30,919 bases of DNA, taken from assembly GCA_024279075.1 (NCBI GenBank), contig JAJRRX010000126.1, positions 1-30,919 of the forward strand. Direction: 5' to 3'. Both the position numbers and the translations under genes were made by a program. The DNA comes from Alphaproteobacteria bacterium. GTDB taxonomy: Bacteria; Pseudomonadota; Alphaproteobacteria; Rhodobacterales; Rhodobacteraceae. The first letter of the stretch is position 1. Each line of letters opens with the position of its first letter. The notes beneath the pieces are model-generated. The model was not told where the DNA came from. It was given only the letters and a program-made list of their open reading frames with translations, and ran no database searches. Below, piece after piece: positions 1,916-26,298 of the stretch.

Positions 1916-4369
1916 CTAGTTGGCTCCTGCAATGTTGGAAAGGTCGGGCGCGCGGCGGGGGAGGAGGTCGCCACGCGCCCACCAGCTGGCATTGCCATAG
2001 GTGCGCTGCTGGCGCTTTTCAGCACGGCGGAATTGCGCTTCGGCCTCGGGGTCAAGAAAGCGCTGGAGGTTATCCCATGCCCAGCGGTCCAGTGCCACGC
2101 GGGTGGGCCATAGGCTGGTGAGTGGCATGTAGCGGCGCGCGAGGTTGGAAATATCGCGGCCAACATAGGTGTTTTCGTCGTTCAGGGCGCGGGTGGTGTT
2201 GCTCGCCACCAGGCGGGTGAGGTCTCCTGCCAAGCCCACCACGGGGCCGCCTAGGGTCTCTGCCAGCCCGCCACCGGCGCGGCTGGTCTCTGACTTGAAG
2301 AAATCGCCAAAAATGCCAATGCCACCGCCTTGCGCCATAGCAGCCCCCCAAAAGCCGAGGTCATCCATCGGGCGCGGATCGCGGCCTTTGCTTAGCTCTT
2401 TGAGCTGCACCGCCAGCGCGCCCATGATCGTCATGCCGCCCACCAGCTGGGCCGCATAGATCGCCCGCGCGGTTTTGGTTTCCAGCGCCATGATGCGGCG
2501 ATACTGGTTCAGCGTCAGCGAAATCGCATAGTTCTTATACATGGCGCTGGAGCGCAGAAGCTCGCCGCCAATGGTGCCAGGGGCGCTATCGCCGATAAAC
2601 TTGGCGCGGCCCTCGAGGGAAACACTTGGAATGGCAAATTCCATTTGCTGCTCAAACACCGCTTGCAGGCGGATCGCGAGGCCCTCGGCCTCGGCGCGGG
2701 GCAGGCTGGTGGCTTCCAGCCAGTACTTGGTGGCAATGAATTTGGAGCCGTTGGGGGCGGTAAACAGCGCCGCAGGGTCGGCAATTTTGGCCCAGTCATC
2801 GGCAGTAATGCCGCCCATTTCCAGCGCGCCCCGCATCAATGGGTCCATGTCATCAAACTTTTTACCCACCTGTTGGGCAAGGTGCGCACCAAATTCCATT
2901 TGAAACGCAATGCGGTTCATATCGGTCCAGTGGTTCAGGCCGCTGGCCTTCATCACAAAGTTGCTGAAGCGCTCGGTGATCTCTGGCGACCACACATCGC
3001 CAAGGTAGCGGGCGCTGGCGCTGCCGGCATCGGCCAAGGTATCAGCCACATAGCCCATAGCGGCGGCCTCTTGGCGGCTGGCATGGCTGGCGATCAGCTT
3101 GGTGGCACGGCTTATGGTATTGTTGGGGTTCATACCCACGGCCTTGGCCGCCATGCGCACGGTCGCAAGGTCGGTCACCGCCGAAAGGGTGGCAGAGCCG
3201 AGCTGGGCGCTGGTGAGCATTTGGCGGGTGCCGGCTAAGAAGGCAGCCCATGCGTGATTGGCCGGCACATTGCCCGAGCCATCGAGATGAGCCAGCATAG
3301 CGCGGGCGAGCTTGGCTTTGGCTGATAGCTTGGCCGCCATCTTGTCATCGAGCGCGAGGTTGGCCTGCTTTTCCAGCACCTGAATGGCATGGTCCAGCCC
3401 CGCTTGCGGGTTGGGGCCAAAGTTGCGCATCAGGGCAATGTCGCGGGCCATGCCGTCAAGGTGGCTCACGATGCTGTCAAACGGGTTGGTGCCGCCAAAG
3501 CGCTTGTTATAGGCCATCCATTCATCGGCGTTTTTGAAGTGCAGAATGCGGGCATCGGCGCGCTGGTTGTAAAGCGCCTTGCCACCAGGGGCAAAGCTGG
3601 CCTCGCGCTTGTTCCAGCCGCGGGTGGTTATGCCCTCATAAACGTCTTTCAAAAAGCGGTCCGCCGCCGCGCGGTTGGGGCGGCCGCCAAGGGCAAAGGG
3701 CTTGCCGGTTTGGGTGTCGGTGATCCGGTTCCAGTCGATCCGGTCAAACACATCAGCGCGCCAGGCTTCAAAGCCCGCTTTGCGCAGCTTGGCCACATCA
3801 TGCACATGGGGCAGGCCAAAATCGGCCAGATCGCCAATGTCGCCGCCATGGGCGTTGAACAGCGTGCGCAAGCGGGTTTGGGCTTGTTGAATGGCCTCGG
3901 CCATTTGCGCGGCATGGGCGTTGGCGGTTTTCTCGCCGTGCAGCTCGCGCACCACATCGCCCAGCAGGGCCTTGTTTCGTGGGTTGCCGAAAATACCGCG
4001 GGCGTTTGCCTGAAAAAACGCGGCAAGGCCACCATGAGTTTGCTTCATAATGCCGTCGCGCTCAAAGCGGGTGCGCTCAAGGTTGCTGATCAGCAGGTTT
4101 GGCGTGGCGTCTGCCCCGCTATAAATCGCTTGGTTGCGCTGCGCGGTTTTGAGTTGCTCAATTACAGAATGCGCGCGGGAATTGGCAGCGCGGCGGGTGG
4201 CAACCTTAATGTCATCAGCCGCGCGGGCCTGTGCGGCGTGCAATGGCATAGAGGCGCTGTAGCGGTCCACCAGTTCGGTGAACGCGCGCTGCGCATCTCT
4301 GCCGCGTGTCAGGTCGATCTCGCCATTGTCCATGGCCACTTGCAGGCAGTCGTTCATGTTAGCCATCAC
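1916..4369 (-). CDS. Large internal virion (ejection) protein, epsilon15 gp17-like (817 aa)
   Basis: Size, position before the tail fibre, hydrophobic Gly-rich C-terminal segment followed by GRDPRPMDD...GGGIGIFGDF. ATGA overlap with the upstream gene. Confidence 0.8.
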   Translation of the reverse strand: MMANMNDCLQVAMDNGEIDLTRGRDAQRAFTELVDRYSASMPLHAAQARAADDIKVATRRAANSRAHSVIEQLKTAQRNQAIYSGADATPNLLISNLERTRFERDGIMKQTHGGLAAFFQANARGIFGNPRNKALLGDVVRELHGEKTANAHAAQMAEAIQQAQTRLRTLFNAHGGDIGDLADFGLPHVHDVAKLRKAGFEAWRADVFDRIDWNRITDTQTGKPFALGGRPNRAAADRFLKDVYEGITTRGWNKREASFAPGGKALYNQRADARILHFKNADEWMAYNKRFGGTNPFDSIVSHLDGMARDIALMRNFGPNPQAGLDHAIQVLEKQANLALDDKMAAKLSAKAKLARAMLAHLDGSGNVPANHAWAAFLAGTRQMLTSAQLGSATLSAVTDLATVRMAAKAVGMNPNNTISRATKLIASHASRQEAAAMGYVADTLADAGSASARYLGDVWSPEITERFSNFVMKASGLNHWTDMNRIAFQMEFGAHLAQQVGKKFDDMDPLMRGALEMGGITADDWAKIADPAALFTAPNGSKFIATKYWLEATSLPRAEAEGLAIRLQAVFEQQMEFAIPSVSLEGRAKFIGDSAPGTIGGELLRSSAMYKNYAISLTLNQYRRIMALETKTARAIYAAQLVGGMTIMGALAVQLKELSKGRDPRPMDDLGFWGAAMAQGGGIGIFGDFFKSETSRAGGGLAETLGGPVVGLAGDLTRLVASNTTRALNDENTYVGRDISNLARRYMPLTSLWPTRVALDRWAWDNLQRFLDPEAEAQFRRAEKRQQRTYGNASWWARGDLLPRRAPDLSNIAGAN

Positions 4370-7300
4370 GCGCCACCTTTCGGGTTACAGAGGTTTATGA
4401 TGTCCGCCAGGTTGGCATCGGCATCGAGGTCATCGAGGATCTCTGAGGCGCGGTAGGTTTGGCCGTCAGCCGTGGTGATTTCGAAATCATCGGCAGCTAC
4501 AATGCTCTCGCGCACCTCTTTCAAGGCCTGCGAAACCTGCACCTCTTGAATTTTATCGGTGGATGTGATATCCAAGCCTTGCCCGGTTGCATCAGGAATT
4601 CGCGATGGTGCACTTGCAGGTGGCTCGTCCGAAGTCTGCACCTGCCGGGCAGTTGTTCCTCTTTGGTCGTCAAAACTGGTAACCAACCATGTTTTTTGCT
4701 GGCCATCATAATCCAGCCTAATTACGGCCGCCCTGGGCGGCGTGTCGTTCGTTTGAATATACACACGGTCTGATAATTGTTTGGTGATGTGTCCATCGCG
4801 CAAAACACGAGGCAGATCGGCCAAAACATCATCACCGTGTTTATACTGGATATGCCGCAAACCAAAGTTTTCATTCCCGTAAACAAAGGCAATATTGCCT
4901 AAATCAGGGTGTTCAAAAGCATCGGTAACTTCACCGCTTTTGGTCTCCATCAAGCGCTTGATTGCCCCTTCAGGATTGTTTCGGAAGCCACTTATTTCTG
5001 GGCCAAATGGCAAAGAAGGGCTATTTGATACTGCCGCTCGAAGGTCCGCTGCACCCTGCGCATCTGCGGCAATCGAGCCATCGCTTTGCGCCCCGTCTAT
5101 GTAGCCTTGTTCGTCGATCTGGCTGGTGTCGAGCGGCGCTCTAGCTTGTCCGCCGCCGCTTTGAGCTGCGGGTCGGTTTGGCTGGCGGTAGAGGCTTTCA
5201 TCGCGCGGGCGAGTGCCAGGCCCGCCAGGGGCGAAAAGGTCGGTTTCTTTTTGGATTGCATCGAGCACCTCCATGGGGCCGCTAGACAATTCATCACTGA
5301 AAAGCGCGGCATCGGTTTTGCCCACTATGCGGGCTTCATTGGTGTAGCCGTCCAGCAGCTCGGTGATCTCGCGATCAGGGCGCACACGGTCGCCCTTGCG
5401 GAAGATTTGCACCAGCGCTTCGGTGAGCGGGTGGATTTGGCCATCGAGGCTGATTTGTGCCAAGGCATCATCAATCGCCCCTGCGGTGCTGCCGCCACCC
5501 TTGCTGGCATTTCTGCGTGCATCGCCAATCAGCCGCACCGCATCGAGCAGGTGGGCGGTCAGGTCCATCTCGGGCTTGATCAGCCCCGCCTCGATGTCAG
5601 CCCGCAGGGCAGACCACGCGGGCGCAGCTTCAGCCAGCGCGTCAATCAGCGAGCGCATGGCAGGGTCAGCGGCCTCGGTGTGTTTGGCAATCAGGTCCGG
5701 TGCGCCATATGCGCGGGCAAAAAGCGCTTGTTTCAAGCGTCGCTCGCCATCAAGGTTCAAGCGGCCCTCGGCAGTGGTCAGGGCGGCGCGCTCATTGGCG
5801 GGCAAGCCTTCCAAAAAAGCCCGGGCAAAGGTGGTGTTTTCCGGTGCGCTTATAGGTTTTCCCGGGCTGTATTGCGCCATGGTGTGACTGGAAAGCCCCC
5901 GGGCATCTTGCGCGGCCTGCTCGGTGGCGCTCATGCGGGCAATCGAGCTGGTGTTGGCGTCGTTCACAAAATCAACGCGGGCCTCTGGGGTGAGGTCAGA
6001 TTGGCGGCGGGCCACCAGCACGGGGTCGGCCATGCCCTCGGGAATGTCAAAACCCGCCTCGTTAATGGCGGCGCGGTAAGCCGCTTTGCGGTCTGGCGCG
6101 GCTTGTTGAATAGCCGCCACGCGGCCATTGCCGCTCTCGATCACGTTATCAGGGCCAATAATAGGCGCGCCTCGGTCCGCCTCAGATGAAGGCATCAGGC
6201 GGGCAGGGTCCAGTTCGGCGGCAATCTGGGTGATCTGGGCATCACTGGCCGCGCGGGTGCGATCGCGCGGCTGAAGCTCGCCGCTAGCGCGGGTTAACAG
6301 GCTGGCATCCACCACCTCATAAGCCACATCAATGCGGGTGCCGGAGGGCGTGACCACTTGGCCAGGTGCGGTATATCCCGCACGGGTGCCGGTGGGGATA
6401 TTGCTAGCGCCATTGGTGGTGGCGCGGGGGCTGGTGGGAAGTGGAACTTCAAAAGGTTGGCCGGTTCGCCCAGCATTGATTGCTTTACCAAAATATGGAT
6501 CGAGCGAGGCTGAGCGTCTATCTGGCCCCCATGCGGCCACTGAGCCACCCCCAACATGCACACCCCAATCGTAATGGCCAAGGCCTGGAAACACAGCAGC
6601 AGCATTTGTGAAGAACCGCGCATATAATTCGGGGTCTTCGCTCGGTGTGATTTTCACACCATTTCGTGTGAGAACAAGATCCGCAGTATTGGAATGTCCG
6701 GATACATCAACGTCATGACGCACACTACCAGTCCGTGGGCCACCTGAGCCAATGGGCGCTTGCCCTGCCGACGTGACAATTATCCCGATATCTTCACCAA
6801 GTGGGGCAACAACGCCATTTAAACGGGCTTGAAAATCACTGCTAATCGGCATTGAACGAATTTTGCCTTCTAACTCAAATGTGATTGGAACTTCGCGAAC
6901 TGGCGCAACCGGCACCGGCTCATCATTGGCCAGCGCGGCCTCGGTGTCGCGCGCTAGGGTCTCGCCATCGACATCGCCTTCAGCCTGCATCTGGTTGCGG
7001 CCGGCGCGGTATTGATTAAAGCGCCGCGCGCCAGAGGCAACGGCGTGAACTGCACCGCCAAGCACACCGCCAAAAGCCGCGCCCATGGTGATTTGGGCGA
7101 GGGCATTCGGGTCTGGTATGTCTAGCTTTTCGGCTTGGTCATTCATGCGGGGCAGGATGGCCGCTTCGCCTGCGGCCCCAAGAGCCGCTTCTGTTGCGAC
7201 CGTGCGTAAAAATCCACCGCCAAAGCCTAGCGGGGCCATGGCAAGGCTAAGTTCATCGGTCATCGCTACAGCGCCACGGCCTATGAATTCGGCCAATCCA

Positions 7301-22383: not shown

Positions 22384-24222
22384 TTACTCGAAATCTTGGA
22401 TGTCGGCGGGCTGTGGGGGCTTAGGCGGGGCCTCTGGCGGCTCTGCCGCCTCCGGCGAGCCTTCTTCGCCAAAAAGCCCAGGGATCGAAGCCAGCGGGAA
22501 CTTCCAGCACCGGCTCTTCACCATGTTGAAGCTAAGCGCACTCGTCGCGGTTGCGCTCGGAATGCGCCGCGTGGCTTGTGACCACACACCATTGCTGGCG
22601 CTTGATGAATACCAGCGGGTGTCTTTGAACAGGCGCGCGAGGCCGTCATGGCTGTTGGCAATGGCGAGCTGTGCGCCCTCCTTGCGGCCATAGACGCGAA
22701 TGCCGATTGAGCTTAAAGCGTGGGTTGCTTTGGCCATATCCTCGCCATCATCCAGCCCTGCGGCCACCAGTATCCAGCGGCCCACGGTGAGCTTTTCACC
22801 GCCGCGAAATACATCGAGCTGCTGGCCGAAAAGATAGTTGAGGCAGCGCTGCCAGTCGCTACTCTGCTGAGCCTGGTCTTGCACCACGCGGGCCGATAGC
22901 TTCTCGCTCCAGTTGTTAAGGCGGGCCTCGTCCGGCTCGCTGTCAAATAGCACTAAATCGGCCATGGTCAGCAGGGTGCCGAACTGGTCGCAGCCACGGT
23001 GGCTGTGGCCGGCCGCGGCCAGCGCGCCGCGATAGGCGTTGAGCGTGTCGTGCATCCGGTCCCAATTTGCCAGCACCATGCTGCGCAAAGCTTGGCCCAC
23101 TCTGCCCCATTTTTTGGGGTCCGGCTTGGGGGCCTTGGAGCCTTTTTTAAGGGTGAGCAGGTCCAGCACCGCGATGCGGCTTATGTCCTGGTCAAGCATA
23201 TCAGGAACAAGGATCGAGGAAAACAGGTAGCTGTTTTTTACCAGAAACTCGCTGGCCTTGTGGTCCTGCCCGCCACGAATAACCTTGCCGCCTGAGCTGG
23301 CGAGGCGGGCGAGCTTGACCACGTCTTTCACCCGGCGGCTGTCGGCCTCGGCCTCCAGCTCGTCAATCGCCACGGGGATGGTGCTTTGGCCGGTATATTG
23401 CCGGATCGCCGCCTCGGTCGCCCCTGCGGGCTGTAGCAGGCTGTTTTTGCCAAAAATATCGCCGATGATCTCTTGCAGGGTCGATTTGCCGGTGCCCGCG
23501 TCGCCGGTGAGCCACACCATGGGCCGCCAGCGCAGGGCACCGCCAAACAGGGCCGAGCATATCCAGCCAAGCAGCAAATAAGCGTCCACGTCGCCCCGGA
23601 GCCAGTGCCAGCTCTTTAAGGTGGCGAGCAGCTCGGCGGCGGGGGATTGGTCATCGGCGCTTATGAATTCGGTAAGGGGGCGCGGGGTGCGGATATCTGA
23701 CGGGTAAACATAGCCGTCAATCTCGCCTGGTTCTTTCCAGTTGCCCTTGTAAAGCACCGCGCCGCCGCAATGCAGAATGATGCCGCCCTCGCCATCAGGC
23801 CATGCGCCAAGCCCGCGCACGCGCTCGGTGGCGTTCCACACGCCCTTATCGGTGCAGGCGCGCACCATGGCCTCGGCGGCGGCCGCCTGATCAAAGCCGA
23901 TCACCTGCGGCGGCGAGGTTTCGCTGCCCTTTGACCAGCGCGGGAATTCGCCTTTCAGCAGGTCCACCCGCCCGCCAAATATGCCGCGAATGCGATCAAG
24001 GTCATGCTTTTTAACATCGGCAAGCTGGCCCAGATAATCGAGATAATAATAAACAGGCCCCTGCACGCCAAGCGCGGTGACCGGAGAATTCGGAAAGATC
24101 ATCCCGCGCGTCTCCAGCGGCCCCTCGGCCGCCTCGTGCTCGCTGGCTTTGGGCGGGTCCAGCTCGCCGCGCAGCAGCTCAAGGCTGGGCTTTTTCGGGT
24201 CTGTTGTGGCGGGCTTGGTCAT
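22384..24222 (-). CDS. Replicative helicase / P-loop NTPase (SF3-like, 612 aa)
   Basis: Walker A GDAGTGKST, Walker B PVAIDE. Located after the Toprim primase. Confidence 0.85.
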   Translation of the reverse strand: MTKPATTDPKKPSLELLRGELDPPKASEHEAAEGPLETRGMIFPNSPVTALGVQGPVYYYLDYLGQLADVKKHDLDRIRGIFGGRVDLLKGEFPRWSKGSETSPPQVIGFDQAAAAEAMVRACTDKGVWNATERVRGLGAWPDGEGGIILHCGGAVLYKGNWKEPGEIDGYVYPSDIRTPRPLTEFISADDQSPAAELLATLKSWHWLRGDVDAYLLLGWICSALFGGALRWRPMVWLTGDAGTGKSTLQEIIGDIFGKNSLLQPAGATEAAIRQYTGQSTIPVAIDELEAEADSRRVKDVVKLARLASSGGKVIRGGQDHKASEFLVKNSYLFSSILVPDMLDQDISRIAVLDLLTLKKGSKAPKPDPKKWGRVGQALRSMVLANWDRMHDTLNAYRGALAAAGHSHRGCDQFGTLLTMADLVLFDSEPDEARLNNWSEKLSARVVQDQAQQSSDWQRCLNYLFGQQLDVFRGGEKLTVGRWILVAAGLDDGEDMAKATHALSSIGIRVYGRKEGAQLAIANSHDGLARLFKDTRWYSSSASNGVWSQATRRIPSATATSALSFNMVKSRCWKFPLASIPGLFGEEGSPEAAEPPEAPPKPPQPADIQDFE

Positions 24223-24965
24223 AGGGCAAAACTTTTCTTTTGATCAGGGGTTGACAACAGCGCCAATGGCGCTAAATTGTAAGATGTCACAAGGGCAATG
24301 AAGCCCGCCAAATAGGAGATGACATTATGAAAAATGAAGCCAAAATTTACAAAAATATGCGCGAAATAGCAGCGGATTTGGAACCCAATCAAATCAAGCT
24401 GGTCATCATGAAAAACTACAATGACTTCGAGGTTCCTACGGAGGCCATCAGCGCTTTGCTGGATGTCCTCGAAGCTAAAATCGGCAGCGCCGAATTTGTC
24501 GGCTTTTGCAACATCCTCAACCAATAAGGAGCCGAAAAAATGACAAATTTTGAGAAAGCCGTTCGCGAAGGTTACAAGATTGAAAAATACGGGGATAATA
24601 GCCAGTGGTTCGTCGTTGACAATTTCGGCACTTGCTGGGGCTATTATTTCACCGAGCGTAAGGCTATTAACGCCATGAGCCGAATTGGCAAGGGCTACAA
24701 CTAAAACAACTGGCCCGCTTCGGTGGGCCATGAAAAACAGGGAGACACCATGACCCCCGAAGAATTCAAAGCCGCCCGCAAATCCTTGGGCCTTACGCAA
24801 GCCCAGCTCGGCCACGTGCTGGATACCGCGCCGCAAACCATCCGCAAATGGGAAATGCCGGCGGGTCGCAGCACAGCGCGCGGGGTTAACCCCGTAGCGG
24901 CCCGCGCCATGGGCTGGATGCTGGCAGGCTTCCGCCCACCCGAATTTCCGAAGGATCAGCGCCAA
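24219..24965 (-). CDS. 248-codon ORF antisense to the three-gene cassette, coupled to the helicase start
   Basis: GGGGAGG SD then in-frame TTG at 24965, 2 nt after the upstream stop. Ends with a TGA overlapping the helicase ATG. Composition is shadow-like. Confidence 0.3.
   Translation of the reverse strand: MALILRKFGWAEACQHPAHGAGRYGVNPARCAATRRHFPFADGLRRGIQHVAELGLRKAQGFAGGFEFFGGHGVSLFFMAHRSGPVVLVVALANSAHGVNSLTLGEIIAPASAEIVNDEPLAIIPVFFNLVTFANGFLKICHFFGSLLVEDVAKADKFGAADFSFEDIQQSADGLRRNLEVIVVFHDDQLDLIGFQIRCYFAHIFVNFGFIFHNVISYLAGFIALVTSYNLAPLALLSTPDQKKSFAL
24251..24278 (+). promoter_or_regulatory. Sigma70-type promoter with a 15-bp palindromic operator
   Basis: TTGACA (24251)-N16-TAAATT (24273). 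AGCGCCA-A-TGGCGCT at 24259-24273. Confidence 0.75.
24327..24527 (+). CDS. Hypothetical protein (66 aa), cassette gene 1
   Basis: SD AGGAG, AT-rich (33% GC in 24301-24360). Confidence 0.8.
   Translation: MKNEAKIYKNMREIAADLEPNQIKLVIMKNYNDFEVPTEAISALLDVLEAKIGSAEFVGFCNILNQ
24540..24704 (+). CDS. Hypothetical protein (54 aa), cassette gene 2
   Basis: Below the ORF-track cutoff. SD AAGGAG. MTNFEKAVREGYKIEKYGDNSQWFVVDNFGTCWGYYFTERKAINAMSRIGKGYN. Confidence 0.75.
   Translation: MTNFEKAVREGYKIEKYGDNSQWFVVDNFGTCWGYYFTERKAINAMSRIGKGYN
24711..24730 (+). other. C(UUCG)G tetraloop hairpin between cassette genes 2 and 3
   Basis: TGGCCCGC-TTCG-GTGGGCCA 8-bp stem with one G-U pair. Confidence 0.65.
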
Positions 24966-24971
24966 GCCTAA
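24750..24971 (+). CDS. XRE-family helix-turn-helix protein (73 aa), cassette gene 3
   Basis: MTPEEFKAARKSLGLTQAQLGHVL....QTIRKWE is a classic HTH. SD GGGAG. Confidence 0.88.
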   Translation: MTPEEFKAARKSLGLTQAQLGHVLDTAPQTIRKWEMPAGRSTARGVNPVAARAMGWMLAGFRPPEFPKDQRQA

Positions 24972-25150
24972 ACCCTCCCCATAGCCGCGCGGCGGCGGCG
25001 TTGGCGGGTCATTTTGTCGGCGCTCGGGGTGTTTTCCCAGATCTTGCGGTGCGCCTCCAGCCGCGCCGCTGCCCGCTTGTTGGCGGGGGTAGGCTTTTTT
25101 TGGCCGTAATGTGGCTTGAAGAGTTGCTTCAAAAGATCGTAAAAATTCAT
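24968..25150 (-). CDS. Small basic hypothetical protein (60 aa)
   Basis: MNFYDLLKQLF...RQRRRRAAMGRV. ATGA overlap with the primase stop. Confidence 0.65.
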   Translation of the reverse strand: MNFYDLLKQLFKPHYGQKKPTPANKRAAARLEAHRKIWENTPSADKMTRQRRRRAAMGRV

Positions 25151-26298
25151 GCTGCACCTGCGCTTTCCTGTTGGTTTTTGATCATCATCAGGGCATCGTT
25201 TAGGTCTTTGCCCCCATGGGTGTTTTTCCAAATGCTCACCTCGCGGCCTTGCTTCAAAAAATGAGTTTGCGCCTGGTCAATCAGCCGCAGCTGCTCTTTG
25301 CCGTCATCATTATCGGCCACAATGGTGACGCGGGTAATGGCGGCAGGTAGCTGCACCTCTTTGAGATTGCCAAGCGAAATGGCACAAAGCACGCGCGCGT
25401 GGGGGTGGATCACCGCCACGCTCAGCGCGTCCTCGATGCCCTCGGTAATGTAAACATGGTCACCAGCTGGCGCTTTGCTCAGGGGCGCGGCTTTGCCGCC
25501 GCGCGGGCCGGTGCCGGTCCAAAGGCGGATATAGCCGCCCTGCATCGAGCCAAACACTTTTTTAGGGCTGGGCACAGGGGCCTTGCCCCAGTTTCCGGCA
25601 TCATCTTGTGCAAGATACGTGCGGTGAACGCCCCAAAATTCCGGCGCGCTGCCATCCTCATGCGCAGGGCCATAAATGGCGGCGATCATGGCGGGGTAGG
25701 GGGTTTCGCTATATTCGCCGGTTTCGGGGTCCGTATGGAAATAGGTGCAATGGGGCATGTAGCGCAAAGAGCCAGGGGCGCGGCCGAGCACATCGAGGCC
25801 GATGGCGCGGTTGGCGAGGTAGGCCGCCACAGGCGTGCCTGTCAGATCCTCTTGCGCCTGTATGAACATCGCATGCGCGCGACCGCGCTTTTGCTTGGTC
25901 AGGGCCTCGGCATCCTGCGCGGCGCGGGCGCGGCGGGCCTTGGCTTCGGCTTGCTTGCGCAGGCGCAGGGCCTTTTGCTCGGGGGTTTCGGTATCCATGC
26001 CCAAAAACTGGCGGGCCTCGGTAAGCGCGGTGCGGGCATCGCAGCCAAGCGCATAACGGATCAGGTCCAGCATGTCGCCATCTTCACCGCTGGCATGGTC
26101 ATGGTAGCGTCCGGCATAGGCGCCGGTCAGGTTTACATAAAACGAGCCAACGGCGCGGTCGGTGCGCCAGGGGTTCAGCGCCCAGTATTTGCCCTTGTCC
26201 ACCCGCCCGCCTGGCGCATAGCGCTCGGCCACCTCGAGGGTGCGGGCCTTTAGGGCCTCGGCAATCTCCTGAATGGTGGGCAGGGCGGGGCGGCTCAT
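25147..26298 (-). CDS. Toprim DNA primase (383 aa)
   Basis: Toprim motifs YITEGIEDALS, IVADND and GKDLND. N-terminal degenerate DnaG zinc-finger-like region (SFYV...GDMLDLI). Confidence 0.9.
   Translation of the reverse strand: MSRPALPTIQEIAEALKARTLEVAERYAPGGRVDKGKYWALNPWRTDRAVGSFYVNLTGAYAGRYHDHASGEDGDMLDLIRYALGCDARTALTEARQFLGMDTETPEQKALRLRKQAEAKARRARAAQDAEALTKQKRGRAHAMFIQAQEDLTGTPVAAYLANRAIGLDVLGRAPGSLRYMPHCTYFHTDPETGEYSETPYPAMIAAIYGPAHEDGSAPEFWGVHRTYLAQDDAGNWGKAPVPSPKKVFGSMQGGYIRLWTGTGPRGGKAAPLSKAPAGDHVYITEGIEDALSVAVIHPHARVLCAISLGNLKEVQLPAAITRVTIVADNDDGKEQLRLIDQAQTHFLKQGREVSIWKNTHGGKDLNDALMMIKNQQESAGAA

Follow-up and report, generated by a model that had tools for sequence, protein, structure and literature searches.

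A stop-free mirror frame across a backward gene cassette may carry ribosomes to the helicase gene of a phage replication operon

The window analysed here (W) is one whole contig (C234; 30,919 nucleotides, nt) of an alphaproteobacterial metagenome-assembled genome (MAG) that is 82% complete. It looks like the contig of a temperate phage, has a phage GC content of ~60% and carries nearly all of its large genes on the minus strand. An operon on that strand runs from a primase gene through a gene for a protein of 60 amino acids (aa) to a helicase gene, and a cassette of three plus-strand genes interrupts it between the 60-aa gene and the helicase gene. Opposite this cassette lies a long minus-strand open reading frame (ORF), here called the bridge, that ends on the helicase start codon. 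The features of the region, including sites that resemble a Shine-Dalgarno sequence (SD), are listed below; L-numbers here and elsewhere denote related loci fetched for comparison.

25147..26298, minus strand: primase, 383 aa, with DUF7146 and Toprim_3 (Pfam and PHROGs matches)
24968..25150, minus strand: conserved 60-aa gene, ATGA-coupled to the primase gene, stop codon TAG at 24970..24968
24973..24980, minus strand: SD-like GGGGAGGG, from the sequence, 7 nt upstream of the bridge TTG
24219..24965, minus strand: bridge ORF, 248 codons, from TTG 24965..24963 to TGA 24221..24219
22384..24222, minus strand: helicase, 612 aa (phrog_21086 at 8.8e-75; phrog_35358)
24251..24278, plus strand: predicted cassette promoter, from the sequence, with a near-consensus TTGACA (24251-24256), 16 nt and TAAATT
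24327..24527, plus strand: cassette gene 1, 66 aa, GC 0.43, SD AGGAGA
24540..24704, plus strand: cassette gene 2, 54 aa, GC 0.45, SD AAGGAG, 100% identical in L174
24750..24971, plus strand: cassette gene 3, XRE-family HTH regulator, 73 aa, GC 0.64 (HTH_3 2.6e-6; phrog_14076 1.9e-14)
24711..24730, minus strand: GC-rich hairpin followed by a U-rich tail, intrinsic-terminator-like, from the sequence, inside the bridge ORF

The primase stop codon (TGA, 25149..25147) shares an ATGA with the start codon of the 60-aa gene, homologues of which occur in L005, L006, L007, L126, L127 and L174. The C-terminal codons of this gene (conserved ..MGRV*) make up the GGGGAGGG at 24980..24973, and behind it the bridge opens with an in-frame TTG 2 nt past the TAG stop (TAG, gc, TTG), as a preliminary description of this DNA had noted. 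At the other end, the bridge TGA and the helicase ATG (24222..24220) overlap as ATGA (24222..24219). The helicase, which matches the C-terminal half of primase-helicase proteins (phrog_35358), has ATG 24222 as its sole candidate start, and the 20 nt before this codon contain no SD-like motif, in agreement with the same description. Termination-reinitiation coupling requires that genes overlap or be separated by a very short gap (PMC12548453; Huber et al., PMC10666635), and both bridge junctions are built in this way, being co-directional with stop and start overlapping or a few nt apart.

Between these junctions, the bridge is codon-aligned and antisense to the promoter region and to all three cassette genes with the two spacers between them. 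The start positions of the cassette genes (24327, 24540 and 24750) are all divisible by 3, and the spacers measure 12 and 45 nt; these coordinates had been reported before and are confirmed here. The opposite frame had also been described as stop-free up to the TGA on the helicase ATG. It is in fact longer than was stated, as the codon-aligned minus-strand frame is open from 25181 to TGA 24221..24219 (321 codons, with a GTG at 25157). The cassette has the composition of a genetic ambigram, with none of the three mirror-stop codons (TTA, CTA and TCA) among its 193 codons, and in the spacers the other two frames each contain 2 stops. For W alone, the chance of this pattern is ~1e-3, which is the product of a register term of (1/3)^3, a mirror-stop term of ~0.15-0.3 (the remaining phage genes have 79 TTA/CTA/TCA in 7946 codons) and a term of ~0.13 for stop-free spacers. 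This is suggestive, and insufficient for a scan of many windows; the comparative data are decisive.

The helicase has 436 homologues at E<=1e-20. For comparison, we gathered ~135 non-redundant loci with primase and helicase genes, drawn from genomes and metagenomes, viral contigs and Logan/ENA assemblies. An alignment query was required to recover these loci: a single-protein helicase query left 59 of 60 related genomes without a match, the lone distant one being G060 at 32% identity, and single-protein scans yielded one locus from viral contigs and none from genome contigs. Related prophages are present in cultured Albimonas, Roseobacter sp. N2S, Zavarzinia, Cohaesibacter and Xanthobacter. 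In 113 relatives the helicase gene is preceded by a gene on the same strand, and in 82 of them it starts within 15 nt of the upstream stop (overlaps of 4 nt of the ATGA type in 47, of 1 nt in 7 and of other lengths in 14, with a further 14 within 15 nt). A tight stop/start junction is the family default upstream of the helicase, and the upstream partner is frequently the primase itself (L014, L040, L042, L045 and L175). The cassette is absent in L005 and L175. L005 is the closest relative, with a helicase that is 87% identical; there, a same-strand PAPS-reductase gene (4213-5004) occupies the cassette site and finishes as TTGA on a TTG helicase start. We left L005 out of the cassette set, as this low-scoring gene was miscalled by the gene finder and is real by Pfam. 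The preliminary description had supposed that the insertion parted the helicase from an ancestral adjacent SD. This part of it is not supported: relatives without the cassette mostly overlap the upstream stop, and the GGGGAGGG is coding sequence of the 60-aa gene. The ancestral state was a stop/start overlap and not a stand-alone SD.

Backward genes lie directly upstream of the helicase gene in 14 loci, W included, and clustering distinguishes at least 10 gene contents among them. Their cargo, given as protein lengths where no name is available, is as follows.

W and L174: 66 + 54 aa
L006, L043 and L097: a protein of ~190-200 aa with no assigned function
L021 and L095: ArdC anti-restriction protein (ArdcN + MPTase-PolyVal)
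L127: 77 + 115 aa
L038: 76 + 60 aa
L007: 113 + 132 aa
L046: 89 + 145 aa (HTH_31)
L124: two pentapeptide-repeat proteins
L065: other cargo
L069: other cargo

Nine of these 14 loci have in common an XRE gene at the distal end of the cassette and, within the spacer of its promoter, a palindrome that is probably an operator. This reveals that the cassette is built as an operator/promoter, exchangeable cargo and an XRE gene as bookend.

Across these different cassettes, the helicase-strand frame is open over the whole cassette in 12 of 14 loci and spans 180 to 539 codons; this count takes in L038, where the bridge lies in the helicase's own frame, and L069, where the contig is cut at the 5' end. 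The bridge stop is found at +1 of the helicase start (ATGA) in ten of the 14 loci, at +5 in L021 and at +7 in L007. The L043 stop falls at +7 of a 63-aa gene, which in turn joins the helicase gene through an ATGA, and the L038 stop is in-frame, 3 nt before the helicase ATG. At its 5' end, the bridge is coupled to the stop of the upstream gene through ATGA (L021, L043 and L046), TGATG (L097, L095 and L038), GTGA (L007 and L124) or TAG-gc-TTG behind an SD (W and L127), the L127 layout of GAGGAGG, TAG, gc and TTG being the same as that of W.

Of 19 pairs of neighbouring cassette genes, 18 are in the same register, compared with 13% of the control co-directional pairs in the same loci (134 of 1035 on the plus strand and 37 of 296 on the minus strand). 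Only two TTA/CTA/TCA codons were observed in the 3984 cassette codons of the 14 loci, where 21-23 were expected from the other genes in the same loci (Poisson ~1e-7), and the four cassettes other than W with a low GC content at third codon positions (GC3) have 0 mirror stops against ~12 expected. The non-coding spacers (2288 nt) contain a single stop in the bridge frame, which is the L038 bridge's own stop, versus 29 and 44 in the other two frames. Multi-gene backward islands are fully bridged in 10 of 12 cases at the cassette site, versus six of ~45 elsewhere in the same loci; four of these six were checked (L109, L114, L120 and L032) and lie downstream of the helicase gene. A contrasting case comes from a cultured phage, Paracoccus phage vB_PkoS_Pkon1 (L001, MK291442), which was the sole match, through a distant XRE, in a nucleotide search of GenBank phages. 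Its XRE homologue (4816-5213, 79% identical) and an ATGA-overlapping upstream partner lie backward between the holin and amidase genes, and no single frame bridges them. The open frame at the cassette site is not a product of chance. Relatives with different cassettes had been put forward as the place to look for a conserved register; register and open frame are indeed kept there, with ATGA endings in 10 of 14. This supports the earlier suggestion that the in-register cassette was retained because it would deliver ribosomes to the helicase.

Next, we focused on what selection preserves on each strand. In all 12 of 12 pairs, the cassette proteins are more conserved than the bridge peptides encoded over the same DNA. 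The ArdC pair exemplifies this, with 57% identity for the cassette protein and 32% for the bridge peptide and with both copies lacking mirror stops, and the bridge stays stop-free at 37-57% protein identity. Between W and L174, 17 of 31 substitutions affect the third position of cassette codons, corresponding to the first position of bridge codons. The lower conservation of the bridge peptides and the position-3 substitutions indicate that openness is selected, rather than the bridge product. The proteins under selection are thus those of the cassette, and what the opposite strand preserves is openness alone.

From the frame, its junctions and the selection for openness, we infer that the frame is translated, and which effect is selected: the minus-strand frame is likely no ordinary protein gene, but a ribosome bridge that gives the helicase gene coupling, protection from polarity, or both. 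In the early/replication operon, ribosomes would be handed from gene to gene by stop/start overlaps. The cassette would be tolerated through its single codon register, its lack of TTA, CTA and TCA, and spacers that are multiples of 3 and stop-free in the bridge frame. Ribosomes finishing the 60-aa gene at its TAG would restart 2 nt further on at the TTG by way of GGGGAGGG, translate ~248 codons across the cassette and end in the ATGA on the SD-less helicase start, where they would reinitiate or unfold the site. Translation of the bridge would also cover the ~750-nt antisense stretch and should protect the operon mRNA against Rho loading, the hairpin at 24730..24711 and duplexes with cassette mRNA.

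Several observations weigh against this interpretation. The bridge of W starts with TTG, and a terminator-like hairpin lies on the helicase strand inside it. The AT-rich cassette contains promoter-like sites on the helicase strand (24622..24595 and 24352..24324), so that the helicase might have its own transcript. A good SD precedes the helicase in some relatives (GGAGG in L127), so coupling may not be obligatory everywhere. In L065 and L124, one in-frame stop breaks the bridge; in L065 a GTG follows 3 nt after the interrupting stop. In GC3-rich loci less than one mirror stop per cassette is expected anyway, and nine of the 14 cassettes share the same XRE and promoter bookends, so that the events are not fully independent. 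The gene calls in the relatives, finally, come mostly from our own simple gene finder, and database calls agree for L006, L007 and L174 only.

The strongest alternative is that the frame is selected and translated, with a selected effect that is transcriptional or RNA-protective only, through Rho polarity, the hairpin or a duplex with cassette mRNA, and with reinitiation at the helicase as an incidental outcome. Rho polarity acts on operon RNA that is not translated (PMC12548453), the gap would otherwise be untranslated over ~750-1400 nt, and a Rho gene was found in the host MAG. The terminator-like hairpin inside the bridge of W and L174, the SD that some helicases possess, and the precedents of P4 eta and the ambigrammatic narnaviruses, in which translation itself matters (PMC10111431, PMC8316113), point in the same direction. 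However, a bridge with this role could stop anywhere near the helicase, yet all bridges end close to a start (-6 to +7 nt) and 10 of 14 end exactly in ATGA, the same junction that the family uses between real genes; the hairpin, moreover, is not general. Such precise ATGA endings speak for coupling to the helicase, and we consider a purely RNA-protective role unlikely. Protection of the RNA from Rho probably comes as an additional or alternative benefit of the bridge, and protection from the hairpin of W and L174 or from pairing with cassette mRNA may be a further one. Coupling and shielding are inseparable by sequence.

It is far less probable that the long frame encodes a real protein, as an antisense overlapping gene that perhaps arose by overprinting. 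The length of the ORF, its plausible start signals and its coupling at either end speak for this, and reports of such genes exist for E. coli (PMC7103648, PMC9927249). However, the bridge ORF of W has no Pfam or PHROG match, bridge peptides show no relationship from one cassette type to another and, over the same DNA, are in every comparison less conserved than the cassette proteins, part of the frame crosses promoter and spacer DNA, and codon-usage log-odds favour the plus-strand genes as coding (+14, +24 and +7 bits). Neither these log-odds nor the substitutions, which fall on bridge codon position 1, nor the conservation reveal the purifying selection on antisense-frame amino acids that would mark an overlapping gene. 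Least credible of all is a chance shadow ORF with an accidentally shared register: codon-aligned antisense frames of GC-rich genes are frequently open, TTA, CTA and TCA make up only 0.2-1.7% of codons in these phages and antisense ORFs of 350-440 aa occur elsewhere in W, but the low joint probability for W, the repetition of the pattern in 13 further loci with other cargo, the register, spacer-stop and codon tests, the mostly unbridged control islands and the unbridged Pkon1 XRE homologue in its other context all speak against it.

The ingredients of the ribosome bridge proposed here (overlap coupling, polarity and morons) are already known. Like other cases of termination-reinitiation coupling, the bridge uses ATGA- and TGATG-type junctions at both ends; unlike them, its upstream partner is no functional gene, and is instead a stop-free frame running antisense through genes, spacers and a promoter. 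The closest comparison in a satellite phage is eta/kil of P4, where, according to a passage in PMC10111431 that cites Forti et al. 1999 (PMC94026), translation of eta, coupled to the upstream gene, prevents termination. As far as that passage describes it, eta resembles the bridge in being a coupled ORF whose translation, and not its product, would allow read-through of a regulatory region, and differs in spanning a same-strand small-RNA/terminator region, where the bridge crosses opposite-strand protein genes with many interchangeable cargos. In this comparison, the coupling signals are present at the cassette site, and a terminator-like hairpin inside the bridge occurs in W and L174 only. 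In ambigrammatic narnaviruses such as Culex narnavirus 1, a reverse ORF is kept open and apparently yields no functional protein (PMC8316113, PMC8155312). There too, the codon-aligned reverse frame is stop-free by avoidance of the three mirror-stop codons, and translation itself has been proposed to matter. Unlike these eukaryotic RNA viruses, in which the ambigram covers the whole genome, the case here concerns a DNA phage, with an ambigram confined to an inserted cassette and coupled to its neighbours. In open-access papers and bioRxiv, we found no description of a stop-free mirror frame that bridges backward cassettes in phage operons.

Provided that the bridge is translated, a frame can be kept open solely as a track for ribosomes, and phage mosaicism would be limited not only by gene function but also by the need for continuous translation. 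A long shadow ORF facing a real gene could then not always be dismissed, accessory genes at such sites would be predicted to lack TTA, CTA and TCA and to have spacers that are multiples of 3, and annotators would gain a signature for operon-embedded cassettes. We lean, by a small measure, towards a general rule in which backward cassettes in phage operons persist only as ambigrams with a translated, doubly coupled mirror-frame bridge. Under such a rule, cargo (anti-restriction proteins, regulators and small proteins) would be swapped between the bookends under a multiple-of-3, no-mirror-stop constraint, which would shape its codon usage and amino-acid content.

Phage morons are accessory genes that form autonomous transcription units between conserved genes. 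Like morons, the cassette carries a sigma-70-like promoter of its own, and its presence and content vary among related phages, including close relatives. It also resembles them in the deviant GC content of genes 1 and 2 (43-45%), which departs from that of gene 3 (64%) and of the phage. Unlike morons, the cassette faces against the operon between conserved bookends, and its opposite strand is constrained. No terminator-like site was found on the cassette strand in W; such sites are present after the cargo genes in L006 and L127. Genes 1 and 2 matched no Pfam or PHROG family and had no usable Atlas neighbour. An invertible segment or transposon was also considered and rejected, as no inverted repeats flank the cassette.

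A perfect palindrome, GCGCCAATGGCGC, lies at 24260-24272 within the spacer of the cassette promoter. It is kept in L006, L043, L174, L095 and L021, and wherever the XRE gene is present it sits between the -35 and -10 elements of the cassette promoter. The palindrome is probably the operator of the XRE regulator. Relatives extend the core GCGCCAATGGCGC to TAGCGCCAATGGCGCTA (sites at 2786-2804 in L006 and 6552-6568 in L043).

The comparison of W and L174 shows a mosaic. A block of ~390 nt (24476-24864), which comprises the end of gene 1, gene 2, the hairpin and the N-terminal half of the XRE gene, is 100% identical, whereas identity drops to 71% over the first 600 nt of the helicase gene; the primase is 90% identical. 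This suggests a recent exchange of the cassette between phages. The hairpin (24711..24730) is identical in L174 and absent from all other loci. As a separate observation, it could make read-through of the operon depend on translation of the bridge.

Predicted RNA structure offers a further view of the helicase start. In the operon mRNA of W, a perfect 10-nt complementarity between 24207-24216 and 24301-24310 could form an 84-nt loop around the start codon, and the predicted fold there is a long-range helix with z = -2.7 relative to shuffled sequences. We rejected a general burial of the helicase start in RNA structure, as the pairing probability of the start codon ranges from 0.33 to 0.99 across loci.

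The cassette site looks like a slot for accessory or anti-defence genes. ArdC cargo is found at 5833-6708 in L021 and 1354-2250 in L095, and pentapeptide-repeat cargo at 812-2710 in L124. Genes for Tad2-like, Acb2/Tad1-hairpin and Lockin proteins, all anti-defence genes in the same early operon, lie just upstream of the primase gene (L176 2150-2491 and L177 2062-2725; precomputed Pfam). A second site is located just downstream of the helicase gene, where backward multi-gene islands (L109 8752-9882, L114 5551-6723, L120 8896-10035 and L032 9511-11822) are each fully covered by one open operon-strand frame, which reaches 2.3 kb in L032.

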